Below, one piece after another: positions 21,461 through 31,426 of a DNA stretch of 64,000 nucleotides. The DNA comes from Fluviicola sp. (GTDB taxonomy: Bacteria > Bacteroidota > Bacteroidia > Flavobacteriales_D > Crocinitomicaceae). Position numbers and translations under genes: made by a program. The stretch is from NCBI RefSeq assembly GCF_031260455.1, contig NZ_JAIRJW010000037.1. One strand, given 5' to 3'. The notes beneath the pieces were generated by a model. That model had not been told where the DNA came from, ran no database searches, and worked only from the letters and a program-made list of their open reading frames with translations. Each line of letters starts with the position of its first letter. The stretch's first letter is position 1.

Positions 21461-22339
21461 ATGTGGAAATATAAACAAGCCGGACTCATTGTTTTATTCC
21501 TGTTTCTGCTAACTTCCGTTAAAGCGTTTCCCATCACAGACCAGGATGGCAAAATAAATGTTACAGACGAAAAAGGAAGAAAGCAGGGTAAGTGGATTTA
21601 CTATGGTAAAGACCGTCCCGGGTCCGATGTTCCCCCGAATGGAAAAATAGAAGAGGGGGAGTATATTGACGATCGCAAAGAAGGCATTTGGATTCAGTAT
21701 TATAATGACGGTGTAACACCATCTTTAAGAGGAACTTACGAAAACAATCATCCAAAAGGGCAGTTTACCCGTTACTGGCCGAATGGTCAGATCAAAGAAA
21801 AAGGGATTTTCGAAAAAAACATTTATAAGGATTCTCTGATTCGCAAATACGAAAACGGACAAGCTTCCTACCAGGGATTCTATAACGAAATCGGGAAAGA
21901 AGACGGCAAAATCCGTTATTACTACCCGAACGGTCAGTTGGAGTATGAATATGATGCCAATAATGGTGTTGTGGCTGGAAAAGCTATCCGCTATTACGAA
22001 AATGGAGATATCAGGGAAATTATTTATTATGACGGAACCGGAAATCAAATCAGATCAGAGCTAAAAGATCCGGTAAACCCGATGGTCAAAATGAAAACCC
22101 CGGGACAATCCACGGAAAAACCACCAACAATTTCCGGTACCCCAAAAACTCAAGGGGCGAAATGGGTACCAAACGGCTATAATAAAGTTTATAACAATAA
22201 TGGGGAAATCTGGCAGGACGGGATCTTTAAAAACGGAGATCTCTGGGATGGAAAAGTTTACGTTTACGACAACGATGGAATTCTTCTCAAAGTAAAAGTT
22301 TACAAAAACGGCGTTTACCATTCAGACGGACAATTGTAA
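21461..22339 (+). CDS. Secreted MORN-repeat-variant (YwqK-like) repeat protein
   Basis: Signal peptide, then repeated G-x-G/W-x-x-YY-x-NG units (e.g. GKWIYYGKD, GIWIQYYNDG, IRYYYPNGQ, IRYYENGD). Confidence 0.7.
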   Translation: MWKYKQAGLIVLFLFLLTSVKAFPITDQDGKINVTDEKGRKQGKWIYYGKDRPGSDVPPNGKIEEGEYIDDRKEGIWIQYYNDGVTPSLRGTYENNHPKGQFTRYWPNGQIKEKGIFEKNIYKDSLIRKYENGQASYQGFYNEIGKEDGKIRYYYPNGQLEYEYDANNGVVAGKAIRYYENGDIREIIYYDGTGNQIRSELKDPVNPMVKMKTPGQSTEKPPTISGTPKTQGAKWVPNGYNKVYNNNGEIWQDGIFKNGDLWDGKVYVYDNDGILLKVKVYKNGVYHSDGQL

Positions 22340-22565
22340 ATGGAGTCCGCTAGTTTCGTTTCGTGTGGCGGTTTAAAAAAATCATAAGCCATCCGTTACA
22401 CCGCCTGTGATGAGGAAAAAATAAAAACCTGGTCGGGCGAAACGGAAAAAAGGCTGTTGACCTTGCTATGAAGATCCGTTTAAAAAGGGTTCCACCATAA
22501 CAAAGTTTTAGCTGCTGAAGTAAACATCCTAGTTTATTCGATAAGCAAGTAGTATGAAAAGAAAA

Positions 22566-24761
22566 CTAATTTCCAAGCTCTAATTGATTTTTGACCAGAT
22601 TATAATAAAGTCCCTGAAACTTGACTAAACTTTCATGATTTCCTATTTCAGCAACCTTTCCTTGGTCAAGAACAACAATCTGATCTGCATTTTTAACTGT
22701 ACTCAGCCGGTGGGCAATTATACAAACTGTTTTCCCCTTGAAAAAAGTTTTGAGATTATTATGAATTTGCAATTCGTTATGTGCATCTAAACTGCTTGTT
22801 GCTTCATCAAAGAAAATAAATTCCGGATTCCGATATATTGCTCTGGCAATAAGAATTCGTTGTGTTTGACCACCACTTAATTGAATTCCCACACTTCCAA
22901 CTTTTGTAGAGTATCCCATTGGAAGAGATGAAATAAAATCATCTATGCAAGCAATCTCCGCTACCTTTCTTATTTGTTCCAAATCATCAATGTTATTTGA
23001 AAATGCAATGTTGAAAGCTATCGTACCGCTAAAAATAATCCCTTCTTGCGAAACTACCCCACAGGAATTCCTCCATAAATCGGGATTAATTTGATTAATA
23101 TCCTGGTCACCTAGCAGAATTTGTCCAGAGGAAACTTTGTGATATTTCAATAATAATTTTAACAACGTCGTTTTTCCACTCCCACTTTGTCCAACAATTG
23201 CAGTTGTTTTATTCGCAGGAATTACAAAATCAATATTTTCAAGAACGAATGGATTAAAAGAGCCTGGATATTTAAACGAAATGCCTTTCAGTCTAATATC
23301 AAAGTCAGAATTCAACGGAACGAGATTTGCACCGTCATCTTCATTTTGTTCGTTATATACATCACTTATCCTGTTATAAGCAATTTTAGCATCCTGTGTA
23401 TCTTTGATGAAGTTTATGATATTCTGAATCGGACCAGATAATTGACCTAGAATATAAGTAGTGGCAAGCATTGAGCCTATCGTCATTTTTCCTTCAATGA
23501 TTAAATATGCACAAATTGCAATAGCTGCTATTTCTTTTAATTTAGAAAGAAAACCCACTCCTATCAATTGATAAATATTGAGAAAAAGTGAACGAAGTTC
23601 AAGCCTGTTTAGTTTGTGCTGTAAATCAATAATGTTCTTTATTATTGCATCTTGAGCATTATGCGTTCTTATTTCTGGCATATTCATTACAAACTCATAT
23701 AGCAGATTACTATTTGCTGATTGCCTTAAAAAAATCGAGTATTCAATTACTGCGCGTTTTTTCAGAAAAACTGCAACCCAAAGAATTGAAAATATGCTTA
23801 GTAAAATATAAATACTAAAAACCGTTTTACTTGAATAAAAAAGAAGTATGCTAAATACAATGATATTCGCAGAGGTAATTAAAAGTGACAGTCCTTTCCA
23901 AGTGACAAAATTCTTGATTTTCTCATGATCGCCCAGCCTCTCTAAAGTATCAGAGTTTAACCGTGTGTCAAAATAACTAATCGGCAACTTCATCAATTTT
24001 TTCAAGAAGTTTTCTTTTAAATTTATACTTAAATAGAAGTTTATTTTTGTTAAAGACCATTCTGATATAAATTCAGAAATAATACTACTTATAAACAAAA
24101 TGAGTTGTGCAATCAGTAGATATACTACAATATTCAAAGAGCGATCTAATATTCCTTCATCTAATATTCGTTTAAATATTACTGGTGATAACCAATTGGA
24201 AACCAAACCAATAAAAAGAATCAATATTGAGAGTAGATACTTAAATTTATTGTTCTTGACATAGCTGAATACATTATTCAATAGGCTTCTATCTTGTTGT
24301 CTCCCTTCAATTTTAGGTATTTCCAAGCCCTCATCACCTTCTTGAAAAAGGATTGCAACACCTTTGGATTCATTGCCTACCCATTCATTTTTAAAAACAT
24401 CCTCTTCCAAACCCGTTTCTCCATAACCCGGATCAGCTATATGATAGATTCTTTTATTTCTCCTTACTTCTACCTTATATAACACAACAAAATGATCCTG
24501 TTTCCAAAAAAGTATAGCAGGTAGTGGAACTTGCTCTATTTCTTCTAAATTTACCTTGTAAGCATTGGTTTCAAATCCTATTTTTTTTCCTCCTTCAACT
24601 ATATCTTGAACTGAAACCCCCATACGAGTAACAGAACAAATAGATTTGACAGTTTTCACATCAGCCTTCAAACCAAAATGGCTGCATATCATTGAAAGGC
24701 AAGCAGGTCCACAATCAACACTTTCACTCTGATGAAAGAATCTAAATTTTTTATTAAACAT
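22566..24761 (-). CDS. Peptidase C39-domain ABC transporter (double-glycine leader-cleaving bacteriocin/RiPP exporter)
   Basis: N-terminal C39 motif QSESVDCGPACLSMI with downstream HFVVLY. Six-TM region. Walker A GQSGSGKTT, signature LSGGQTQR, Walker B FIFFDEATSSLD. Confidence 0.9.
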   Translation of the reverse strand: MFNKKFRFFHQSESVDCGPACLSMICSHFGLKADVKTVKSICSVTRMGVSVQDIVEGGKKIGFETNAYKVNLEEIEQVPLPAILFWKQDHFVVLYKVEVRRNKRIYHIADPGYGETGLEEDVFKNEWVGNESKGVAILFQEGDEGLEIPKIEGRQQDRSLLNNVFSYVKNNKFKYLLSILILFIGLVSNWLSPVIFKRILDEGILDRSLNIVVYLLIAQLILFISSIISEFISEWSLTKINFYLSINLKENFLKKLMKLPISYFDTRLNSDTLERLGDHEKIKNFVTWKGLSLLITSANIIVFSILLFYSSKTVFSIYILLSIFSILWVAVFLKKRAVIEYSIFLRQSANSNLLYEFVMNMPEIRTHNAQDAIIKNIIDLQHKLNRLELRSLFLNIYQLIGVGFLSKLKEIAAIAICAYLIIEGKMTIGSMLATTYILGQLSGPIQNIINFIKDTQDAKIAYNRISDVYNEQNEDDGANLVPLNSDFDIRLKGISFKYPGSFNPFVLENIDFVIPANKTTAIVGQSGSGKTTLLKLLLKYHKVSSGQILLGDQDINQINPDLWRNSCGVVSQEGIIFSGTIAFNIAFSNNIDDLEQIRKVAEIACIDDFISSLPMGYSTKVGSVGIQLSGGQTQRILIARAIYRNPEFIFFDEATSSLDAHNELQIHNNLKTFFKGKTVCIIAHRLSTVKNADQIVVLDQGKVAEIGNHESLVKFQGLYYNLVKNQLELGN

Positions 24762-24775
24762 CTAAAATCTATACT

Positions 24776-27205
24776 TTAAATTCGATTTCTTTCTGATTCA
24801 CTTCCTTTGTTCTGCTTCCTTTGTCTTATGTACTTATTACCGAATTTATAGCTCAATGAAAAGGCAATATTTCTTGAATCATAGTAGTTGTTGGTGTAAA
24901 TAGAAAAGGTTGAAGTTCGCATGTCCGATTTTGGTGCTGAATTTTTAAATAAATCTGAAATATTTACAGATAATATTAATCGGCCCTCCAAAAACTTTTG
25001 GGTTAATCCGAAACCCAAAATATACTGGGACTTCATGTTGGAGATTGTATATATGGAGCCTAATGGACGAGCCGAAAAATTCACATCTGCTGAAAGCCCT
25101 TTAGTAATTGTAATTGAGGAATTGAAGTTACAGAATAAAATACTGGTCGAAGATGCTTCGTAAAAAGATGCCTTTGGTTTAAAAGTCGAAAACAAATACA
25201 CCAACACGATCGAATTTTCTATTTTCTCCCCCAGATTAAAAGGAATATTAACAAAACCTCCGTATTGATTAGTATTTCCAATGTTCTCTTGGGTATATAC
25301 AATATTATTCAATTCGTCTTTTGGCGCCTCCATATACGAATTAGCAAAATTGGTGTACAAAAGCCCCAAATAATAACGGTCATTTAAAACATAATCAATT
25401 TCAGCATCTGTAATATAAGTTGGTCTTAGTTGAGGATTTCCAATATTATAAATCCGATTTGTTACGTAACGTCTAAATGGATTCAGGGAAGTAAATCCTG
25501 GTCTATCTATTCGCATACCATAGGATATCGAAACCGTATGCTTACCGGAAAATTTATGCAAATAATAAATCGTCGGAAACAGATTAAAAAACACTCGTTT
25601 TGTTTGACTATTTACTATATCTTGCTTTCCAATTAGTTGAGTGTACTCTCCTCGTATTCCTAGTTGAATCTCATCTTTGTCCCATTGTTTGTTATAAGAA
25701 GTATAAAATGCTTCTGTCTGCTCAGTATATAAAAAGCGACTATTTTGAAGTGTGTCATAGAAGACATTATTATTAACCGAATGCGTCATTGAATTATTAT
25801 TATTATTTCCGATCCAGTTAAATTTAGCTCCTATACTAAAATTACCAATTTTTGAAGGCAATTGATATTCTACATCAATTACTGCAAGATTTACCAACTG
25901 CACACTTCCGCTATTCATTGATTCAAAAGAATTCAATGTATCTCCTGAATAATTTTGAAAATCAAAATTATTGGCTAAATCTGTATTATTGTAAAAATAA
26001 TTCGCGACAAAATTTAGACTTCGTCCAGTTGAATCCAATTTATACTGCCAACTAGCATTTACAGATTGAAAATATAAATCAGTAGCATTTCTTTTGAATG
26101 TATAAGCCGTCGAATCAATTATACTACCATATCCATAAATACTTTCTGCAGTAGATTGATTCTTCAGAACAGAAACACTTCCTTCCCAACTTACAGATAA
26201 ATTTGATTTACTCGAAAAGTAGTAATCTAAACCGATTGTACCTCTCATTCCTTGGGAATATCGATTGGTTATGTCATTCTGCCTGTTAAAGGACGAACTA
26301 AAGCTATAATCTGATTTTTCATTGTATCTATTTTCACCATTTCGACCGCTAAGGGTTCCATACACATTAAATTTCTTGCCTCGATGGTTAAGCATAAAGC
26401 TCAATCTTTCAGCCCCATAAAAAGCTTGTGTGTAAGATGCTGTCAGACTTCCGTTAGTACCTAGCATTCTATTCTTCTTCAACACAATATTGATTATTGC
26501 ACTTCCACTGGCATCGTACTTTGAAGGAGGGTTTGTCAATACCTCAATTCTAACGACTTCCTCGGACGGAATTGATTCTAAATACTGAACCAAATCATCT
26601 CCTTCCAAATATATTCGCTTTTCATTAATCAAAAAAGCTAATCCAGCTTTTCCAACGACCGAAATACTTCGATTTTGAACAAAAACCAATGGTGTCTTAC
26701 TCAAAAGTTCAAGTACATTCCTCCCACTTGAATTGGATGTATTCTCAATATTGAAAACTAATCTGTCAATCTTTTTCTCAATCAATGGGGGCTTACCGGT
26801 TATTTCAACGAGATTTAGCTGATGACTATTAGGATTCAGATTTAAGAGTCCTAAATCAATCGTTTTAACTTCTGCAGGTTGAATGATCCGAATAACAGTG
26901 TCCCTAATTTCAGCTTGGGTAATAAACAAGAAAACGTCAATTGGTTCAACAATCAAATTGAATTCAAATTGACCAATTGAATCTGAAAAAGCATAAAACA
27001 ACAATAATGAATCACTGACCTTTCGTAACTCTAATTTTGCAAAAACACAATCTCCTCCGTCAGCTATCTTTAACCGACCTTTAACTACGCTTTGACCATA
27101 GGAATAACCAAAAAAATTAAAAAACAGGGTAATCAGGATAGTTCTAAATAATACAATTCCGCAATTTGGAACTACTTTAGTTAAAATTAACTTCAACAAT
27201 TTCAT
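24776..27205 (-). CDS. TonB-dependent-receptor-like outer-membrane beta-barrel protein (CarboxypepD_reg-like domain, plug-like domain, barrel)
   Basis: Signal/anchor, a VVKGRLK.. Ig-like N-domain, a plug-like stretch (RNVLELLSKTPLVFV...VVRIEVLTNPPSKYDASGSAIINIVLKK), then a long Y/N/S-rich beta-strand region. It overlaps the maturase stop by 29 nt and ends 14 nt before the ABC gene start. Confidence 0.75.
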   Translation of the reverse strand: MKLLKLILTKVVPNCGIVLFRTILITLFFNFFGYSYGQSVVKGRLKIADGGDCVFAKLELRKVSDSLLLFYAFSDSIGQFEFNLIVEPIDVFLFITQAEIRDTVIRIIQPAEVKTIDLGLLNLNPNSHQLNLVEITGKPPLIEKKIDRLVFNIENTSNSSGRNVLELLSKTPLVFVQNRSISVVGKAGLAFLINEKRIYLEGDDLVQYLESIPSEEVVRIEVLTNPPSKYDASGSAIINIVLKKNRMLGTNGSLTASYTQAFYGAERLSFMLNHRGKKFNVYGTLSGRNGENRYNEKSDYSFSSSFNRQNDITNRYSQGMRGTIGLDYYFSSKSNLSVSWEGSVSVLKNQSTAESIYGYGSIIDSTAYTFKRNATDLYFQSVNASWQYKLDSTGRSLNFVANYFYNNTDLANNFDFQNYSGDTLNSFESMNSGSVQLVNLAVIDVEYQLPSKIGNFSIGAKFNWIGNNNNNSMTHSVNNNVFYDTLQNSRFLYTEQTEAFYTSYNKQWDKDEIQLGIRGEYTQLIGKQDIVNSQTKRVFFNLFPTIYYLHKFSGKHTVSISYGMRIDRPGFTSLNPFRRYVTNRIYNIGNPQLRPTYITDAEIDYVLNDRYYLGLLYTNFANSYMEAPKDELNNIVYTQENIGNTNQYGGFVNIPFNLGEKIENSIVLVYLFSTFKPKASFYEASSTSILFCNFNSSITITKGLSADVNFSARPLGSIYTISNMKSQYILGFGLTQKFLEGRLILSVNISDLFKNSAPKSDMRTSTFSIYTNNYYDSRNIAFSLSYKFGNKYIRQRKQNKGSESERNRI

Positions 27206-28487
27206 TTATTTTATTGATAATTACTTTATCCTTTTCATTTTCATCTCCAAAGAAGACACAGTATTCTCTCCCTAAATTATCTAAAGCATGTTGTGAGCAA
27301 CCGCCATTACACAAAGGCATTATTTTACACGATAGACAAGGTTTATTATTGAACTTAGAACTCATTCGTTTATCAAGGGAATCATTTTCCCAAATTATTA
27401 TACCATCATCGGTCAAATATCCCTCTCTTTTTTCAGCAAGAAAGTCACGCGCAGTACATTTGTAAACATCACTATTATAGTTAATTACCGCGCTATTTCG
27501 TTTGTCGGCATAGCAAGAATTTCTAACATTATCTGCAGAATATCCTGATTGGGCATCAATTCCGGTTTCCTTAATTTGTTGAATATTTTTTTGAGCAATT
27601 TCATCAGTATCGTCAATTTGATTATCTTGCCATACTCTATGAAAATCAAACTTTAGAAAACGATCTTTTAAATCCTGATCCAGATCCGAAAATTCATTTG
27701 CAATTTTAAAAGTGTCTTCAATATTTTTAGTAGTGTAGTTTATTCTAATATTGACAAAAAATTCATTTCGCACTAATAATTTTATATTCTTGACAATCTT
27801 TTCATAAGAGCCTTTACTTGAACTAACATAACGAATTTTGTCGTGCTTTTCCTTATATCCGTCTAATGTGATTTGTAAAGCGCTTTTTACTCCCTTTGAT
27901 CTAAAATAATCAATGAATTTATCATTAATCAAATATCCATTACTCGTAAATCCAATAAGAGGTTCGAGACTTTTCTCTTTACATTTAATTAAGTAGTAAT
28001 CAATAATCGGAATAACATCTTTTTCAAAATACAATAGTGGTTCTCCTCCGAAAAAGGACAAGTTAAAGGATTTAAGTTCTGAGGAACTCATTTGATTATC
28101 AATTAACTTATTTACCTTGTTTATCATTGTCATCCCCAACTTAGACTGAGGAATGTGAGTTTCATAACAATACCAGCATTTGAAATTACAATTCATTGTC
28201 GGATTAATAGTTAGAAAAAAATTGTCATGATTCTCATCGACAGATTTTGAAAGTTTTTTTATTTCTTCTATCTCATCAATGTTTTCATCAATAATAAATT
28301 CTTCCTGGATTAAATAATCGTATAATGTCGGGTGAATTCCTTGTAGATTATCAATACCTTCCACAATTGCAGCATTAATCAAATCCTTAACTATTTCTTC
28401 AATGAAGATAACCTTTTGGTTAATGGAATTGAAAAGGGCATAATTTTCTTGGTATTTTAATATTGTGTTGTATCTACTATACTTCAT
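27177..28487 (-). CDS. Radical SAM/SPASM-domain peptide maturase
   Basis: CX3CX2C (CNFKCWYC) at about residue 100 from the ATG at 28487. C-terminal SPASM motif CX2CX5CX3C (CLSCKIMPLCNGGC). The longest ORF (to 28601) would run into precursor 4, so the internal ATG, preceded by AGGAG, is preferred. Confidence 0.85.
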   Translation of the reverse strand: MKYSRYNTILKYQENYALFNSINQKVIFIEEIVKDLINAAIVEGIDNLQGIHPTLYDYLIQEEFIIDENIDEIEEIKKLSKSVDENHDNFFLTINPTMNCNFKCWYCYETHIPQSKLGMTMINKVNKLIDNQMSSSELKSFNLSFFGGEPLLYFEKDVIPIIDYYLIKCKEKSLEPLIGFTSNGYLINDKFIDYFRSKGVKSALQITLDGYKEKHDKIRYVSSSKGSYEKIVKNIKLLVRNEFFVNIRINYTTKNIEDTFKIANEFSDLDQDLKDRFLKFDFHRVWQDNQIDDTDEIAQKNIQQIKETGIDAQSGYSADNVRNSCYADKRNSAVINYNSDVYKCTARDFLAEKREGYLTDDGIIIWENDSLDKRMSSKFNNKPCLSCKIMPLCNGGCSQHALDNLGREYCVFFGDENEKDKVIINKINEIVEVNFN

Positions 28488-28510
28488 TTCTCCTAATCGA
28501 TAGGGTGTGG

Positions 28511-28741
28511 CTATCCGCCACACCCAGTTACACAATTCCCAGAGCAATTTGCATTTATACCCTTGGGTTTCTTTTTTGATTTTTTGTTCTTTGAACCACA
28601 ACCAACAGTAACGTTACCTCCTTTACAGTTATTAACAGATGTAGCATCAGGCTCTTGTTCAAGTAACCCAATAGAGATAGAAAATCCTCCAATTAATTCC
28701 TGACTGGAGTTATTCGATAGTTTTTCAAAATTTAATCCCAT
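28511..28741 (-). CDS. RiPP precursor peptide 4 (76 aa; GG leader, bipartite Cys-rich core with Lys-rich linker)
   Basis: MGLNFEKLSNNSSQELIGG|FS...NNCKGGNVTVGCGSKNKKSKKKPKGINANCSGNCVTGCGG. Confidence 0.75.
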   Translation of the reverse strand: MGLNFEKLSNNSSQELIGGFSISIGLLEQEPDATSVNNCKGGNVTVGCGSKNKKSKKKPKGINANCSGNCVTGCGG

Positions 28742-28810
28742 AACTTAAAATTTATTGGTTAGTGATTTTGATGCGTTAGTTGTCAAAAGTTAACAAAAGA
28801 AAAATAATAA

Positions 28811-29014
28811 TTAATTTTTCGGCCAAGAAATACTACATGAAGTCGCACAGTTAGAACCGGCAACACAATTATTCACTACTACGCATTGGCCGTCATTCTT
28901 ATTTGTACTAATTAAATTACCCTCGAACTTATTCATTACTCCAGAGAATCCGCCAACCAATTTTCCGTTGGCCACTTCTGTAATTTTTTGAAATGATTTA
29001 CTCAAGTTTTTCAT
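28811..29014 (-). CDS. RiPP precursor peptide 3 (67 aa)
   Basis: MKNLSKSFQKITEVANGKLVGG|FS...QCVVVNNCVAGSNCATSCSISWPKN. Confidence 0.8.
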   Translation of the reverse strand: MKNLSKSFQKITEVANGKLVGGFSGVMNKFEGNLISTNKNDGQCVVVNNCVAGSNCATSCSISWPKN

Positions 29015-29020
29015 AGCAGA

Positions 29021-29227
29021 TTATTTTAATTGTGTTTCACCACAACCCATTCGACAATTGGCTCCTGAACAGTTATTAGTTGTTATACAATCCTTATTCC
29101 TTTCCAAACCAATGGAATTATCCGAAAGACTTGGCTTCGCAACTTGGCTGAAGCCACCTACTAAAAGCCCAAAATCATTTATCTTTAGGCTTTCAAGATT
29201 TAATGAATTAATCTTTGAATTTTTCAT
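29021..29227 (-). CDS. RiPP precursor peptide 2 (68 aa)
   Basis: MKNSKINSLNLESLKINDFGLLVGG|FS...DCITTNNCSGANCRMGCGETQLK. It starts 9 nt after the stop of precursor 1. Confidence 0.8.
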   Translation of the reverse strand: MKNSKINSLNLESLKINDFGLLVGGFSQVAKPSLSDNSIGLERNKDCITTNNCSGANCRMGCGETQLK

Positions 29228-29236
29228 ATTAAAAAA

Positions 29237-29431
29237 TTATTCTGTGGCACCACATCCTTTAACACAATTACCACCATTGCAATTATTGACAGTTTGGCAT
29301 CTATCATTCAGCATTGAAACTGAATTGCCAGGTGCATTAAACGTAACAGAAAAGCCCCCAACCAAAAGACCTTCCTTGTCTTGATTTAACCCCTCAAATT
29401 TGGTTAAATCCATTTTCTTTGTTTTACTCAT
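29237..29431 (-). CDS. RiPP precursor peptide 1 (64 aa)
   Basis: MSKTKKMDLTKFEGLNQDKEGLLVGG|FS...RCQTVNNCNGGNCVKGCGATE. Confidence 0.8.
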   Translation of the reverse strand: MSKTKKMDLTKFEGLNQDKEGLLVGGFSVTFNAPGNSVSMLNDRCQTVNNCNGGNCVKGCGATE

Positions 29432-29749
29432 AAATAATAAAATTTAGTTAGCCTCAAATTACACCGTGAGGATTCGGCGAGCTAAAAGCGGTTGTTTATT
29501 TTAAACCGTAGTTTAGTGAGATAATTCTATAATGAAAAGTACCACCAACTTATTAAATCATTAATAATAAATTAGATAGGAAATTTCAAGTAGTTGAGCG
29601 CAATTTTTCGCAGAGTTAGAAAAGAACGTTCGGTTCCAACTGAATTGGATTGAAAAGTTTGAGCAATGTCATATTCAAATAGTGTTTTAAGTTCTCCACA
29701 CATAAATTGCCGTGAAGAATAGCAGTCAGCAGACTTGTTAGTAAATAGT

Positions 29750-29900
29750 CAACCTGTACAATGATAAACAAATATCCACATATTAACAAGTTGTACAGGT
29801 TGTAAAATACAACTTATATCGTTGTATTTTGGTTGTATGGTACAACCAATAGCCAAAAATCATTATATTTCGTGCTGCGTATAGGTTGTACGATACAACT
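29750..29900. promoter_or_regulatory. Array of palindromic operator-like sites GTTGTA-N3-TACAAC plus extra half-sites, between the precursor operon and the XRE gene
   Basis: Palindromes at 29799-29813 (GTTGTAaaaTACAAC), 29831-29847 (GGTTGTAtggTACAACC) and 29884-29899 (GGTTGTAcgaTACAAC). Half-sites at 29790-29795 and 29821-29826. An 11-bp inverted repeat, CAACCTGTACA (29750-29760)/TGTACAGGTTG (29792-29802). Confidence 0.6.
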
Positions 29901-29924
29901 AAGAAAGTTCAAAAAAAATGAATT

Positions 29925-30326
29925 ATGGGAGAATTAGAGGTTAGTTACGCAAACAAATTGCGTTTTCTTAGGCATCGACACGGAAAAAAACAAATTGAAG
30001 TTGCCGATCATTTGAAATTAAGTCAGCAGGCTTATAGTAAGTTGGAAAATGGGGAGACTTCTTTTTCAGATGAAGTAATAGAGAGAATAGCTGACTTCTT
30101 TAAAATTACGCCAGCAGATTTTGTTAAACCTTTCGATCAAATGAATATTGGTGATAATAGCATGAACAGTAATACTACTATTCATTTGATTGATGCAAAA
30201 ATTATTGAAACATTAGAAAAACTATACCAACAAAATGTTACTCTTATTGAATTAAATGTAAAGTTAACCGAAAATCTGCTCAAAGAAAAAGACCTTAGAA
30301 TTAAAGATTTAGAAAAAGGGAAATAA
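29925..30326 (+). CDS. XRE-family helix-turn-helix transcriptional regulator with a C-terminal coiled-coil-like tail
   Basis: HTH_3 pattern LRFLRHRHGKKQIEVADHLKLSQQAYSKLENGETSFSDEVIERIADFF. Divergently oriented to the RiPP operon. Confidence 0.85.
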   Translation: MGELEVSYANKLRFLRHRHGKKQIEVADHLKLSQQAYSKLENGETSFSDEVIERIADFFKITPADFVKPFDQMNIGDNSMNSNTTIHLIDAKIIETLEKLYQQNVTLIELNVKLTENLLKEKDLRIKDLEKGK

Positions 30327-30449
30327 GACAACTACCCGGTTATATAATTGAATATCAGATTGTTTTGTAAACAATTGTTCATCGAATCGACATGATAAGC
30401 ATTGAAATTTTTCGGATTAATTTTCTGAAAATCAAATAGTTTATCAAAA

Positions 30450-31364
30450 TTAATAAGGTTTATCCCAGAAAGTGGGTTCTTTAAAACGGATAATGGATAT
30501 GAAATTGGTGCTCACTTCCCGGATAATGATGGAATAAATCAAACCGGTCAAACCACTGTAAACAAGCTGGTATTCGGTCACAAACACGCCATCTTTATAA
30601 ACCAGCTTCGACTGAAGATTCCCGAAAGCGTCATAAGTGAAACGGGATTCGGAAGTTGGAACCGTATCCATATTTTTATAGACGGAAATATTTTCGATCC
30701 AGCCTTTGTCCGAATACTTGTATTTGGTTGTAATCCGGTTCCGGGTAATGGTAAACAATTCCTCTTCCCTGGATAAATATCCCAGGCTGTCATAATATTT
30801 TGTTACTTCCAGGTATTGGTTCCCATAACTATTGAAAACCTTCTTCCGGTATTGTCCTTCGTAAACCTGATAATCCATTGTTTCGGTATTCCAGAGAATA
30901 CTTCGCTCAATGAAGGGATTCAGGAGACTGTGCATGGTATCAATATCACGATAAACCTCTTCTTTTATAGACTGACCGTCTCCATTGTAAGAATAATAAG
31001 TTGACAAAAAACCTTTTTTCTGACTGATCCGTTTGCGCACCATTCTTCCATCCCTGGTATAATCGTAAAAACGAACGGTTGTATCAGTTACTCCATCTCC
31101 TTTAGCCGTTTGATAGTGACGAACAAGATTTCCGAGCGTATCAAAATCGAAAACATACACATAATTCGATTCACGCATAATGTCGCCCTGCTTTTTATAC
31201 GTAAAGGCCCCGCGGATTTCTTTGATCTTACTTCCCTTGATGAATCTTGTGTTGAAAAAGGGCACATCTGTTAAAGCGACTCCTTTCGAATTGTCGAAAA
31301 GCTGCGCCGATACGCTGTTTGCCAGTAAAGTGAGGATGAAAAAAAAGCTATACTTCAAAAACAT
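30450..31364 (-). CDS. Secreted hypothetical protein with YD/RHS-like repeats
   Basis: Signal peptide MFLKYSFFFILTLLANSVSAQ from the ATG at 31364; the longest ORF runs to 31394. Repeats FDTLGNL, YDYTRDGRM, YNGDGQS, YDSLGYL, YDAFGNL. Confidence 0.6.
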   Translation of the reverse strand: MFLKYSFFFILTLLANSVSAQLFDNSKGVALTDVPFFNTRFIKGSKIKEIRGAFTYKKQGDIMRESNYVYVFDFDTLGNLVRHYQTAKGDGVTDTTVRFYDYTRDGRMVRKRISQKKGFLSTYYSYNGDGQSIKEEVYRDIDTMHSLLNPFIERSILWNTETMDYQVYEGQYRKKVFNSYGNQYLEVTKYYDSLGYLSREEELFTITRNRITTKYKYSDKGWIENISVYKNMDTVPTSESRFTYDAFGNLQSKLVYKDGVFVTEYQLVYSGLTGLIYSIIIREVSTNFISIIRFKEPTFWDKPY

Positions 31365-31426
31365 AACGCAAAAATGGGTTGAATTTTGAAGCATAGCTTA
31401 AATTTTAAGAAAAATTGGAATCTTGT

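Follow-up and report, generated by a model that had tools for sequence, protein, structure and literature searches.

A PF14905 barrel paired with an adaptor-less C39 peptidase-ABC exporter is a recurrent module of Bacteroidota peptide clusters and suggests a different route over the outer membrane

A 64,000-nt stretch of contig NZ_JAIRJW010000037.1 from Fluviicola sp. (the window) carries a compact minus-strand operon in which four precursor genes for peptides made on the ribosome and modified after translation (RiPPs) precede a radical SAM (rSAM) maturase, an 809-aa barrel protein and a C39 peptidase-ABC exporter (PCAT). The pairing of a PF14905 barrel with a PCAT is a recurrent Bacteroidota module that occurs with radical-SAM and class I lanthipeptide clusters. 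Within PCAT export it is a recurrent Bacteroidota variant, as yet without an explanation, whose function we infer. Because the pairing of a barrel with an exporter lacking its adaptor recurs in other genomes, it suggests a different peptide route over the outer membrane. The genes on which the argument turns are the following:

27177..28601, minus strand: radical SAM/SPASM peptide maturase (PF04055, E 6e-14)
24776..27205, minus strand: PF14905 TonB-dependent-transporter-like barrel, 809 aa (ATG start, no internal stop)
22566..24761, minus strand: PCAT (C39 peptidase-ABC exporter), 731 aa, last gene of the operon (PF03412 E 1e-29, PF00664, PF00005)

The original prediction had described a TonB-dependent-receptor-like barrel packed tightly between maturase and exporter in a cluster without a membrane-fusion protein (MFP) gene, and this description holds throughout. 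The barrel matches PF14905 (OMP_b-brl_3) at E 1.1e-70. The barrel ORF contains the rSAM stop codon (TAA, 27177-27179), so that the two genes overlap by exactly 29 nt, and the gap between the barrel stop (24776-24778) and the PCAT ATG (24761) is exactly 14 nt. Downstream of the PCAT, a 226-nt spacer leads to a convergent MORN-repeat gene, with no MFP gene. No match to PF13437 (MFP) was found on the window's contig. This model proved too insensitive as an MFP detector, having missed HlyD-type MFPs on contigs C42 and C53 of the same genome, so we used our own iterated hidden Markov model (HMM) of HlyD-type MFPs, which recovers all 59 full-length MFPs of the sample described below at E <= 1e-29. 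It detected nothing in the six-frame translation of the whole window (E <= 0.01) and, on the window's contig C25, nothing among the ORFs that are 80 aa or longer (E <= 1e-5).

Recurrence was assessed in two samples. For the PCAT-centred sample, a search with the window's PCAT in 401 genomes of the class gave 89 match rows; removal of the window's own and of 10 in which the match started no earlier than residue 98 left 78 PCAT loci, which were taken with 8.8 kb on each side and scored with an HMM of the barrel alignment and with the MFP model. A PF14905 barrel lies beside 10 of these 78 full-length PCATs (same strand, within 6.4 kb, HMM E < 1e-60), in 10 genomes with 9 family codes, and Pfam confirmed all ten as PF14905. 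Weak barrel matches in L116, L133 and L148 were rejected as classical TonB-dependent transporters (TBDTs). The barrel-centred sample consists of 80 metagenome loci, each holding a family member ~30% identical to the query; it leaves out the 35-70% identical relatives (P0002-P0006), and the patterns in this search are family-wide. In 13 of these 80, the same contig carries a full-length PCAT no more than 10 kb from the barrel, near-duplicates among the 13 being L071/L074 and L060/L049, and a 14th locus has a C39 fragment at the contig end. Seven of the 13 carry a LanB dehydratase (five of these also LanC) and six a radical SAM/SPASM enzyme, with both in L033 and neither in one locus. Chance alone, by a rough estimate from gene frequencies, would give ~2 rather than 10 of the 78 and fewer than 1 rather than 13 of the 80. 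A scan of genome contigs with the single barrel protein returned 10 loci with 26-34% relatives only, none of them with an rSAM or C39-ABC gene nearby.

Gene order is less constant than the pairing itself. The order rSAM-barrel-ABC, the conservation of which had been put forward as a check, recurs in L129 and L144, where a short MFP remnant comes next, but not in the loci most closely related to the window cluster: its closest relative among the genomes, L105 (G140:C2:2689459-2709284), has the order barrel..barrel-rSAM-PCAT-barrel, and in L046 rSAM-PCAT is followed by a convergent barrel. The rSAM homologues of G140 and L046 share 55% and 54% identity, respectively, with the window's enzyme. 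Besides the window, an rSAM-centred search of the 401 genomes (E <= 1e-30) yielded four carriers: barrels are present in G140 (the L105 genome), G373 lacks both PCAT and barrel over 9 kb, G317 combines a full MFP with two ABC genes and lacks a barrel, and the G440 locus is truncated by the end of its contig. Over the same distance of 9 kb, no barrel accompanies two rSAM homologues that are less closely related (41-43% identity). Thus, with carriers that lack a barrel, the maturase family is not tied to it. The original prediction had also called the arrangement unusual RiPP-cluster logic; it does depart from textbook export, but it is a recurrent module rather than an isolated oddity, and a similar layout is remarked upon in the passages of PMC10352776 used here.

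The presence of the barrel goes together with loss of the adaptor. A full-length MFP is missing from all of the 10 barrel-linked genome PCAT loci: in five (L105, L138, L142, L165, L174) there is no MFP at all, and in the other five a 159-239 aa MFP remnant directly follows the PCAT. Among the 68 barrel-less loci, a full MFP (351-491 aa, mostly ~430) adjoins the PCAT in 59, a short MFP is found in two, and the adaptor is missing or broken in seven. The full MFPs were confirmed as HlyD_3 by Pfam; among the seven short proteins, that of L129 matches HlyD_3 at E 5e-9 and that of L127 weakly (4e-4), and five have no match at E <= 0.001. The genes for these short proteins (mini-MFPs) are:

L120:11021-11554: mini-MFP gene, barrel-linked locus
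L129:8076-8795: mini-MFP gene, barrel-linked locus
L144:11019-11561: mini-MFP gene, barrel-linked locus
L145:11014-11493: mini-MFP gene, barrel-linked locus
L147:11005-11673: mini-MFP gene, barrel-linked locus
L127:8258-8773: mini-MFP gene, barrel-less locus
L130:10990-11481: mini-MFP gene, barrel-less locus

An alignment to full MFPs shows that the membrane helix at the N-terminus and the beta domain at the C-terminus are retained in the short proteins, and that the coiled-coil hairpin of ~200 residues is gone. In tripartite pumps, this hairpin is the part of the MFP that docks to TolC. The metagenome loci show a similar picture: nine of the 13 have no MFP, three an N- or C-terminal fragment (L025, L027, L095) and one a truncated end (L033), and no HlyD-family Pfam match was found among the 105 neighbouring ORFs of these barrel-PCAT loci (E <= 1e-5). 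The 59 full-MFP loci include eight with LanB and two with a window-like rSAM enzyme; therefore either layout serves the same classes of peptide, and the choice between them goes with the export hardware. In the barrel-less mini-MFP locus L127, we also noted a 525-aa protein with C39 peptidase, VKOR and thioredoxin domains (L127:16210-17787).

By its sequence, the 809-aa protein is assigned to the TBDT superfamily, in its PF14905 branch. The PF14905 match covers residues 389-786 with 239 bits, against a cut-off of 27, and no NCBIfam model matched the protein. Its relatives are Bacteroidota proteins of ~800 aa named 'TonB-dependent receptor' or 'outer membrane beta-barrel protein', and homologues carry PF13715/PF13620 and PF14905, often with PF07715 and PF00593. 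The following parts can be delimited:

27095..27205, minus strand: predicted signal peptide, residues 1-37, ending ...SYG before Q (read from sequence)
26831..27094, minus strand: carboxypeptidase-regulatory-like N-terminal extension, residues 38-125 (family profile, homologues, hhalign)
26792..26815, minus strand: TonB-box-like motif LNLVEITG, residues 131-138 (family consensus L-x-E-V-x-I)
26456..26779, minus strand: plug domain, residues 143-250, beginning KIDRLVFNIEN (profile and hhalign)
24836..26455, minus strand: beta-barrel region, residues 251-790 (PF14905; in homologues also PF00593)
24779..24835, minus strand: charged C-terminal tail, residues 791-809, ...YKFGN followed by KYIRQRKQNKGSESERNRI (alignment consensus)

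At the N-terminus, a hydrophobic stretch (residues 17-33) precedes YGQ, and M1 and Q38 are invariant in the alignment of a six-member subclade. Positions 16-101 of a 30-sequence family profile match carboxypeptidase-regulatory-like domains in the PDB, and hhalign columns 9-100 align to that domain of classical TBDTs; the window protein itself has no Pfam carboxypeptidase-regulatory match, which is seen in homologues only. Likewise, Plug (PF07715) on the window protein alone stays below the cut-off (E 0.011, residues 154-233), and the profile matches plugs at 8e-8 to 2e-4 (Cir 8e-8, PfeA/FepA 2e-7, BtuB ~1e-4). The hhalign comparison with two classical TBDTs gave 98.6% probability over columns 9-232, that is, the N-terminal extension, the TonB box and the plug, and D147, L168, P172 and G185, among others, are invariant in the 30-sequence alignment. 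A TonB box, which had been suggested as something to look for, may be represented by LNLVEITG: hhalign sets the family consensus opposite the EVVV segment of classical TBDTs, and the motif is kept in PCAT-linked and unlinked family members alike. The ESM Atlas model of the exact protein has a pTM of 0.71, and its structural neighbours (TM 0.79-0.84 over 680-736 residues) all belong to PF14905/PF00593 clusters. As a separate feature of the family, the usual terminal aromatic residue of outer-membrane barrels is missing, and after ...Y-x-F-G-N all members have a charged tail, ~20 residues long, in which an acidic patch is conserved and an Arg is present.

The original prediction had offered three functions for the barrel: an exit route, an uptake gate, and a self-immunity decoy or receptor variant. 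We favour the exit route because barrel-linked PCATs lack the MFP or its hairpin; uptake is a possible alternative, and the decoy or receptor variant finds little support. In an export scheme, the rSAM enzyme would modify the GG-leader precursors, and the PCAT would cut the leader after L[VI]GG and, with no membrane-fusion protein involved, pump the core over the inner membrane into the periplasm. From there, passage over the outer membrane would be by way of the PF14905 barrel, whose plug TonB would probably move, as has been demonstrated for Oar, the TBDT of PopC secretion. Here we infer the direction of transport, the TonB dependence and the periplasmic intermediate alike. Replacement of the MFP-TolC route by the barrel is the only model that accounts for the adaptor loss, and two-step TolC-independent export with the barrel as outer-membrane gate, as Oar serves PopC, is a tentative reading to which we give somewhat less than even confidence. 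It is also in its favour that ordinary ABC-MFP-TolC operons are encoded elsewhere in the same genome, on C53 and C42. A little more doubtful is its general form, in which PCAT-linked PF14905 barrels would be TonB-powered exit gates that, with PCATs having no MFP or a hairpin-less one, carry out two-step TolC-independent secretion of radical-SAM peptides and class I lanthipeptides in Bacteroidota.

A number of observations, set out here and in the next three paragraphs, weigh against such an exit gate. In L033, the contig ends 180 nt past the PCAT with an MFP-like N-terminus visible, so this locus may combine a barrel with a full MFP and be a counter-example. The mini-MFP loci L127 and L130 have no barrel in the DNA examined, which for L130 includes a further 12 kb upstream. 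Also, an MFP-TolC pair may be supplied in trans from elsewhere in the genome: contig C25 has no TolC/OEP (PF02321) match, and the rest of the genome has 19. One operon (G000:C53:72436-76650) encodes an ABC protein without a C39 domain, a 432-aa MFP and TolC; in another region (G000:C42:29296-34052), a separate 229-aa C39 peptidase ORF lies upstream of a pair of a 425-aa MFP and TolC. These two HlyD-type MFP-TolC operons would suit a barrel that is a mere passenger with an unrelated nutrient-uptake role, the PCAT borrowing an MFP-TolC pair encoded elsewhere, as would the several PF14905 copies found in each genome of the genus. We nevertheless judge a passenger improbable, since the 29-nt overlap and the 14-nt gap place the barrel within one operon, the same-strand linkage recurs above the chance estimate in both samples, and it is kept across different maturase classes.

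The number of independent events is small. In a FastTree phylogeny of 92 PCATs, the barrel-linked ones fall into three groups with 3 label changes: a clade of 18 (support 84), all barrel-linked, which holds the window together with L046 and L105 (starred support of 100); a clade of five (starred support of 100) made up of the mini-MFP loci, nested among full-MFP PCATs; and L033 alone. The quick IQ-TREE tree of the PCATs requires 5 label changes instead, and the independent contrasts, two on well-supported branches and four in all, are too few for any test. MFP loss goes in the same direction in an average of 1.7 of the 2 well-supported contrasts and never in the opposite one. The link between barrel and MFP loss is thus consistent but rests on few events, and we regard it as suggestive but thin.

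Evidence from the barrels themselves points the other way. PCAT-linked barrels are scattered in a tree of 122 barrels, with 16 changes, of which supported branches force 13, and they sit on long branches (1.41 for that of the window against a median of 0.15). Between the window and the two nearest clusters, the rSAM enzymes are 54-55% and the PCATs 50-53% identical, but the barrels only 23-29%. Some clusters have several barrels (three in L105, where they are interleaved with GGFS-leader precursors, and two each in L120 and L145). Such a pattern has the look of fast-evolving recognition specific to the peptide and would suit a receptor no less than a gate. The first plug strand, which comes after the TonB-box-like motif, retains its D-R in 25 of 25 unlinked barrels but in only 19 of 28 linked ones, that of the window included. 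Separately, the three barrels of L105 are 27-41% identical to one another, and two GGFS-leader precursors adjoin barrels 2 and 3; the layout is as if every barrel had its own peptide.

To our knowledge, TBDTs are importers in nearly all studied cases, and the retained TonB-box-like motif and plug fit import equally well. Further, the neighbours of 20 unlinked barrels are mostly sensors and regulators, not exporters: a LytTR response regulator with a histidine kinase in five, BlaR1-type M56 in two, AraC in three and cNMP-binding proteins in two, with no MFP or TolC gene among them. This hints at a signalling role for the PF14905 family. The barrel could accordingly be an uptake or sensing gate that returns the mature peptide over the outer membrane to an inner-membrane sensor (autoinduction) or delivers cargo, such as a metal on the Cys-rich peptide. 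Such a gate would follow the usual direction of TBDTs, would explain fast-evolving and seemingly peptide-specific barrels, and would match the LytTR response regulator and His_kinase genes in four barrel-PCAT loci (L025, L070, L142, L129). It would also have a parallel in MbnT, a TBDT within the operons of methanobactin (a RiPP chalkophore) that imports the metal-loaded peptide, export being by a separate MATE pump. Uptake, however, leaves unexplained the loss of the MFP or its hairpin in barrel-linked PCATs and does not account for the exit of the peptide over the outer membrane. Moreover, a sensor kinase, a periplasmic binding protein and an inner-membrane importer are all absent from the window cluster, and the N-terminal extension is carboxypeptidase-regulatory-like, not of the STN signalling type. 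We hold an uptake or sensing gate to be possible but rather unlikely; export and uptake could coexist in one gate. Among the unlinked loci, L076, L082, L085, L099, L061, L037 and L054 (~8-15 kb in each) have barrels beside divergent LytTR/histidine-kinase pairs or directly 3' of BlaR1-type M56 genes; the former often come with a DUF5694 gene or a second barrel, and L054 has a BlaI repressor with M56.

The divergence of the barrels bears on self-protection as well. Many peptide antibiotics active on Gram-negative bacteria enter via TBDTs, and a highly divergent, cluster-specific barrel could be a resistant variant or decoy of the receptor by which the peptide enters target cells. There is, however, no close paralogue for which it could stand in: the genome's own barrel paralogues (on C55 and C70) are 25% identical, and the best match among 35 other genomes of the genus is 33%. 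The nearest relatives, 70% and 68% identical, come from assemblies of public reads, and the next are at 35-37%. An extra receptor copy would raise sensitivity and not lower it, and self-protection gives no reason for the MFP loss. We consider it very unlikely that the barrel serves this purpose. In one barrel paralogue group, present in ~10 genomes of the genus (for example G017:C10, G018:C31, G035:C1, G007:C1 and G012:C128), the ~809-aa frame is listed with one in-frame TAG, which may be the real stop codon overrun by the alignment, the mark of a split gene or a site of read-through.

The remaining features of the window operon and its surroundings are as follows:

29237-29431, minus strand: precursor 1 of the tandem array 28511..29431
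29021-29227, minus strand: precursor 2 of the array
28811-29014, minus strand: precursor 3 of the array
28511-28741, minus strand: precursor 4 of the array
29925..30326, plus strand: XRE-type HTH regulator (PF01381 HTH_3, E 5e-12), divergent and upstream of the operon

In their translations, all four precursors have a leader ending in L[VI]GGFS and a Cys-rich core, and ...GGFS... precursors are also found in the related loci L105 and L046. The best NCBIfam match of the rSAM enzyme is TIGR04463 with 157 bits, under the cut-off of 525, and its true start is probably the ATG at 28487 because the longer ORF runs into the last precursor. The divergent HTH gene is likely the cluster regulator, and a similarly placed HTH gene is present in the related loci L046 and L095. 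Counts in a promoter and terminator scan were at chance level. Among sequencing runs containing the stretch, one of DNA, which may be its source, and none of RNA was listed. We rejected a 314-aa ORF (30450-31394) as a hidden partner; it has no Pfam match and is not conserved in related loci. Housekeeping genes border the RiPP island (22000-30500): nuoL/M/N at one end and, at the other, genes for an epimerase and a homogentisate dioxygenase together with the MORN-repeat gene. Its GC content is 0.32-0.35 over 22-30 kb against ~0.42 around it. An AT-rich island, together with a best barrel match within the genus of only 33%, suggests horizontal acquisition.

In barrel-linked clusters, two sets of conserved ~340-aa proteins without a Pfam match lie between the barrel and the maturase or PCAT. 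One includes L033:13124-14137, L103:4333-5349 and L165:12240-13214 and the other L060:12006-13037 and L049:12015-13052, with identities of 29-51% and 59%, respectively, within the set. These are possible unrecognised accessory proteins.

How RiPPs pass the Gram-negative outer membrane is poorly understood and, in the passages of PMC10352776 used here, an acknowledged open question for Bacteroidota; pinensins, at ~2 kDa, cannot use porins (PMC13532221). A gene pair with a clear comparative signature (barrel present, MFP lost or hairpin-less) makes the question of export experimentally simple. If export is true, the roles of TonB-dependent transporters would widen, with a second known outward case after Oar/PopC and the first for small modified peptides, and genome miners and those attempting heterologous expression would be told which gene must accompany Bacteroidota RiPP clusters. 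If import is true, the barrels would indicate autoinduction by peptides or capture of peptide-borne nutrients in Bacteroidota. In both cases, the large PF14905 family would gain its first functional handle.

Our search of the literature, which took in few of the subscription journals, returned nothing that ties PF14905 or TBDT genes to RiPP export. A similar layout is that of the Bacteroidales clusters BGC6-9 (PMC10352776, 2023), noted there without further analysis, for which GG-leader precursors, a PCAT and an outer-membrane protein (OMP) gene are described and no MFP was found; in the passages used here, the authors ask whether transport in these clusters uses a distinct mechanism. Those passages and two supplements leave the OMP type unstated, draw no link to PF14905 or TBDTs and make no comparison with MFP-bearing PCATs.

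With export of the CvaB-CvaA-TolC (colicin V) type, the window cluster shares a C39 peptidase-ABC protein, a GG-type leader site and an exporter encoded with its precursors; in place of the MFP and TolC, it has a plugged TBDT-like barrel. Unlike the window, 59 of the 78 sampled Bacteroidia PCATs keep the classical adjacent MFP. A second likeness is to Oar of Myxococcus xanthus, a TBDT with a CarboxypepD_reg extension, plug and TonB box, which according to the part of PMC6434023 used here is needed for two-step secretion of PopC. The window barrel resembles Oar in its extension, TonB-box-like motif, plug and barrel, and the two-step route, the periplasmic intermediate and the outward direction are, for the window barrel, proposals only. 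Oar is a PF00593-type TBDT and the window barrel belongs to the PF14905 branch; the two are likened by domain architecture only. The genome has three TonB_C genes, and no dedicated Ton genes were found in the clusters examined. The cargo of Oar, as described in the same source, is a folded protease that reaches the periplasm otherwise, whereas here modified peptides of 2-4 kDa would arrive via the PCAT. Finally, methanobactin operons resemble the window cluster in having a TonB-dependent transporter, MbnT, inside a RiPP cluster, but the window barrel is instead paired with an exporter.

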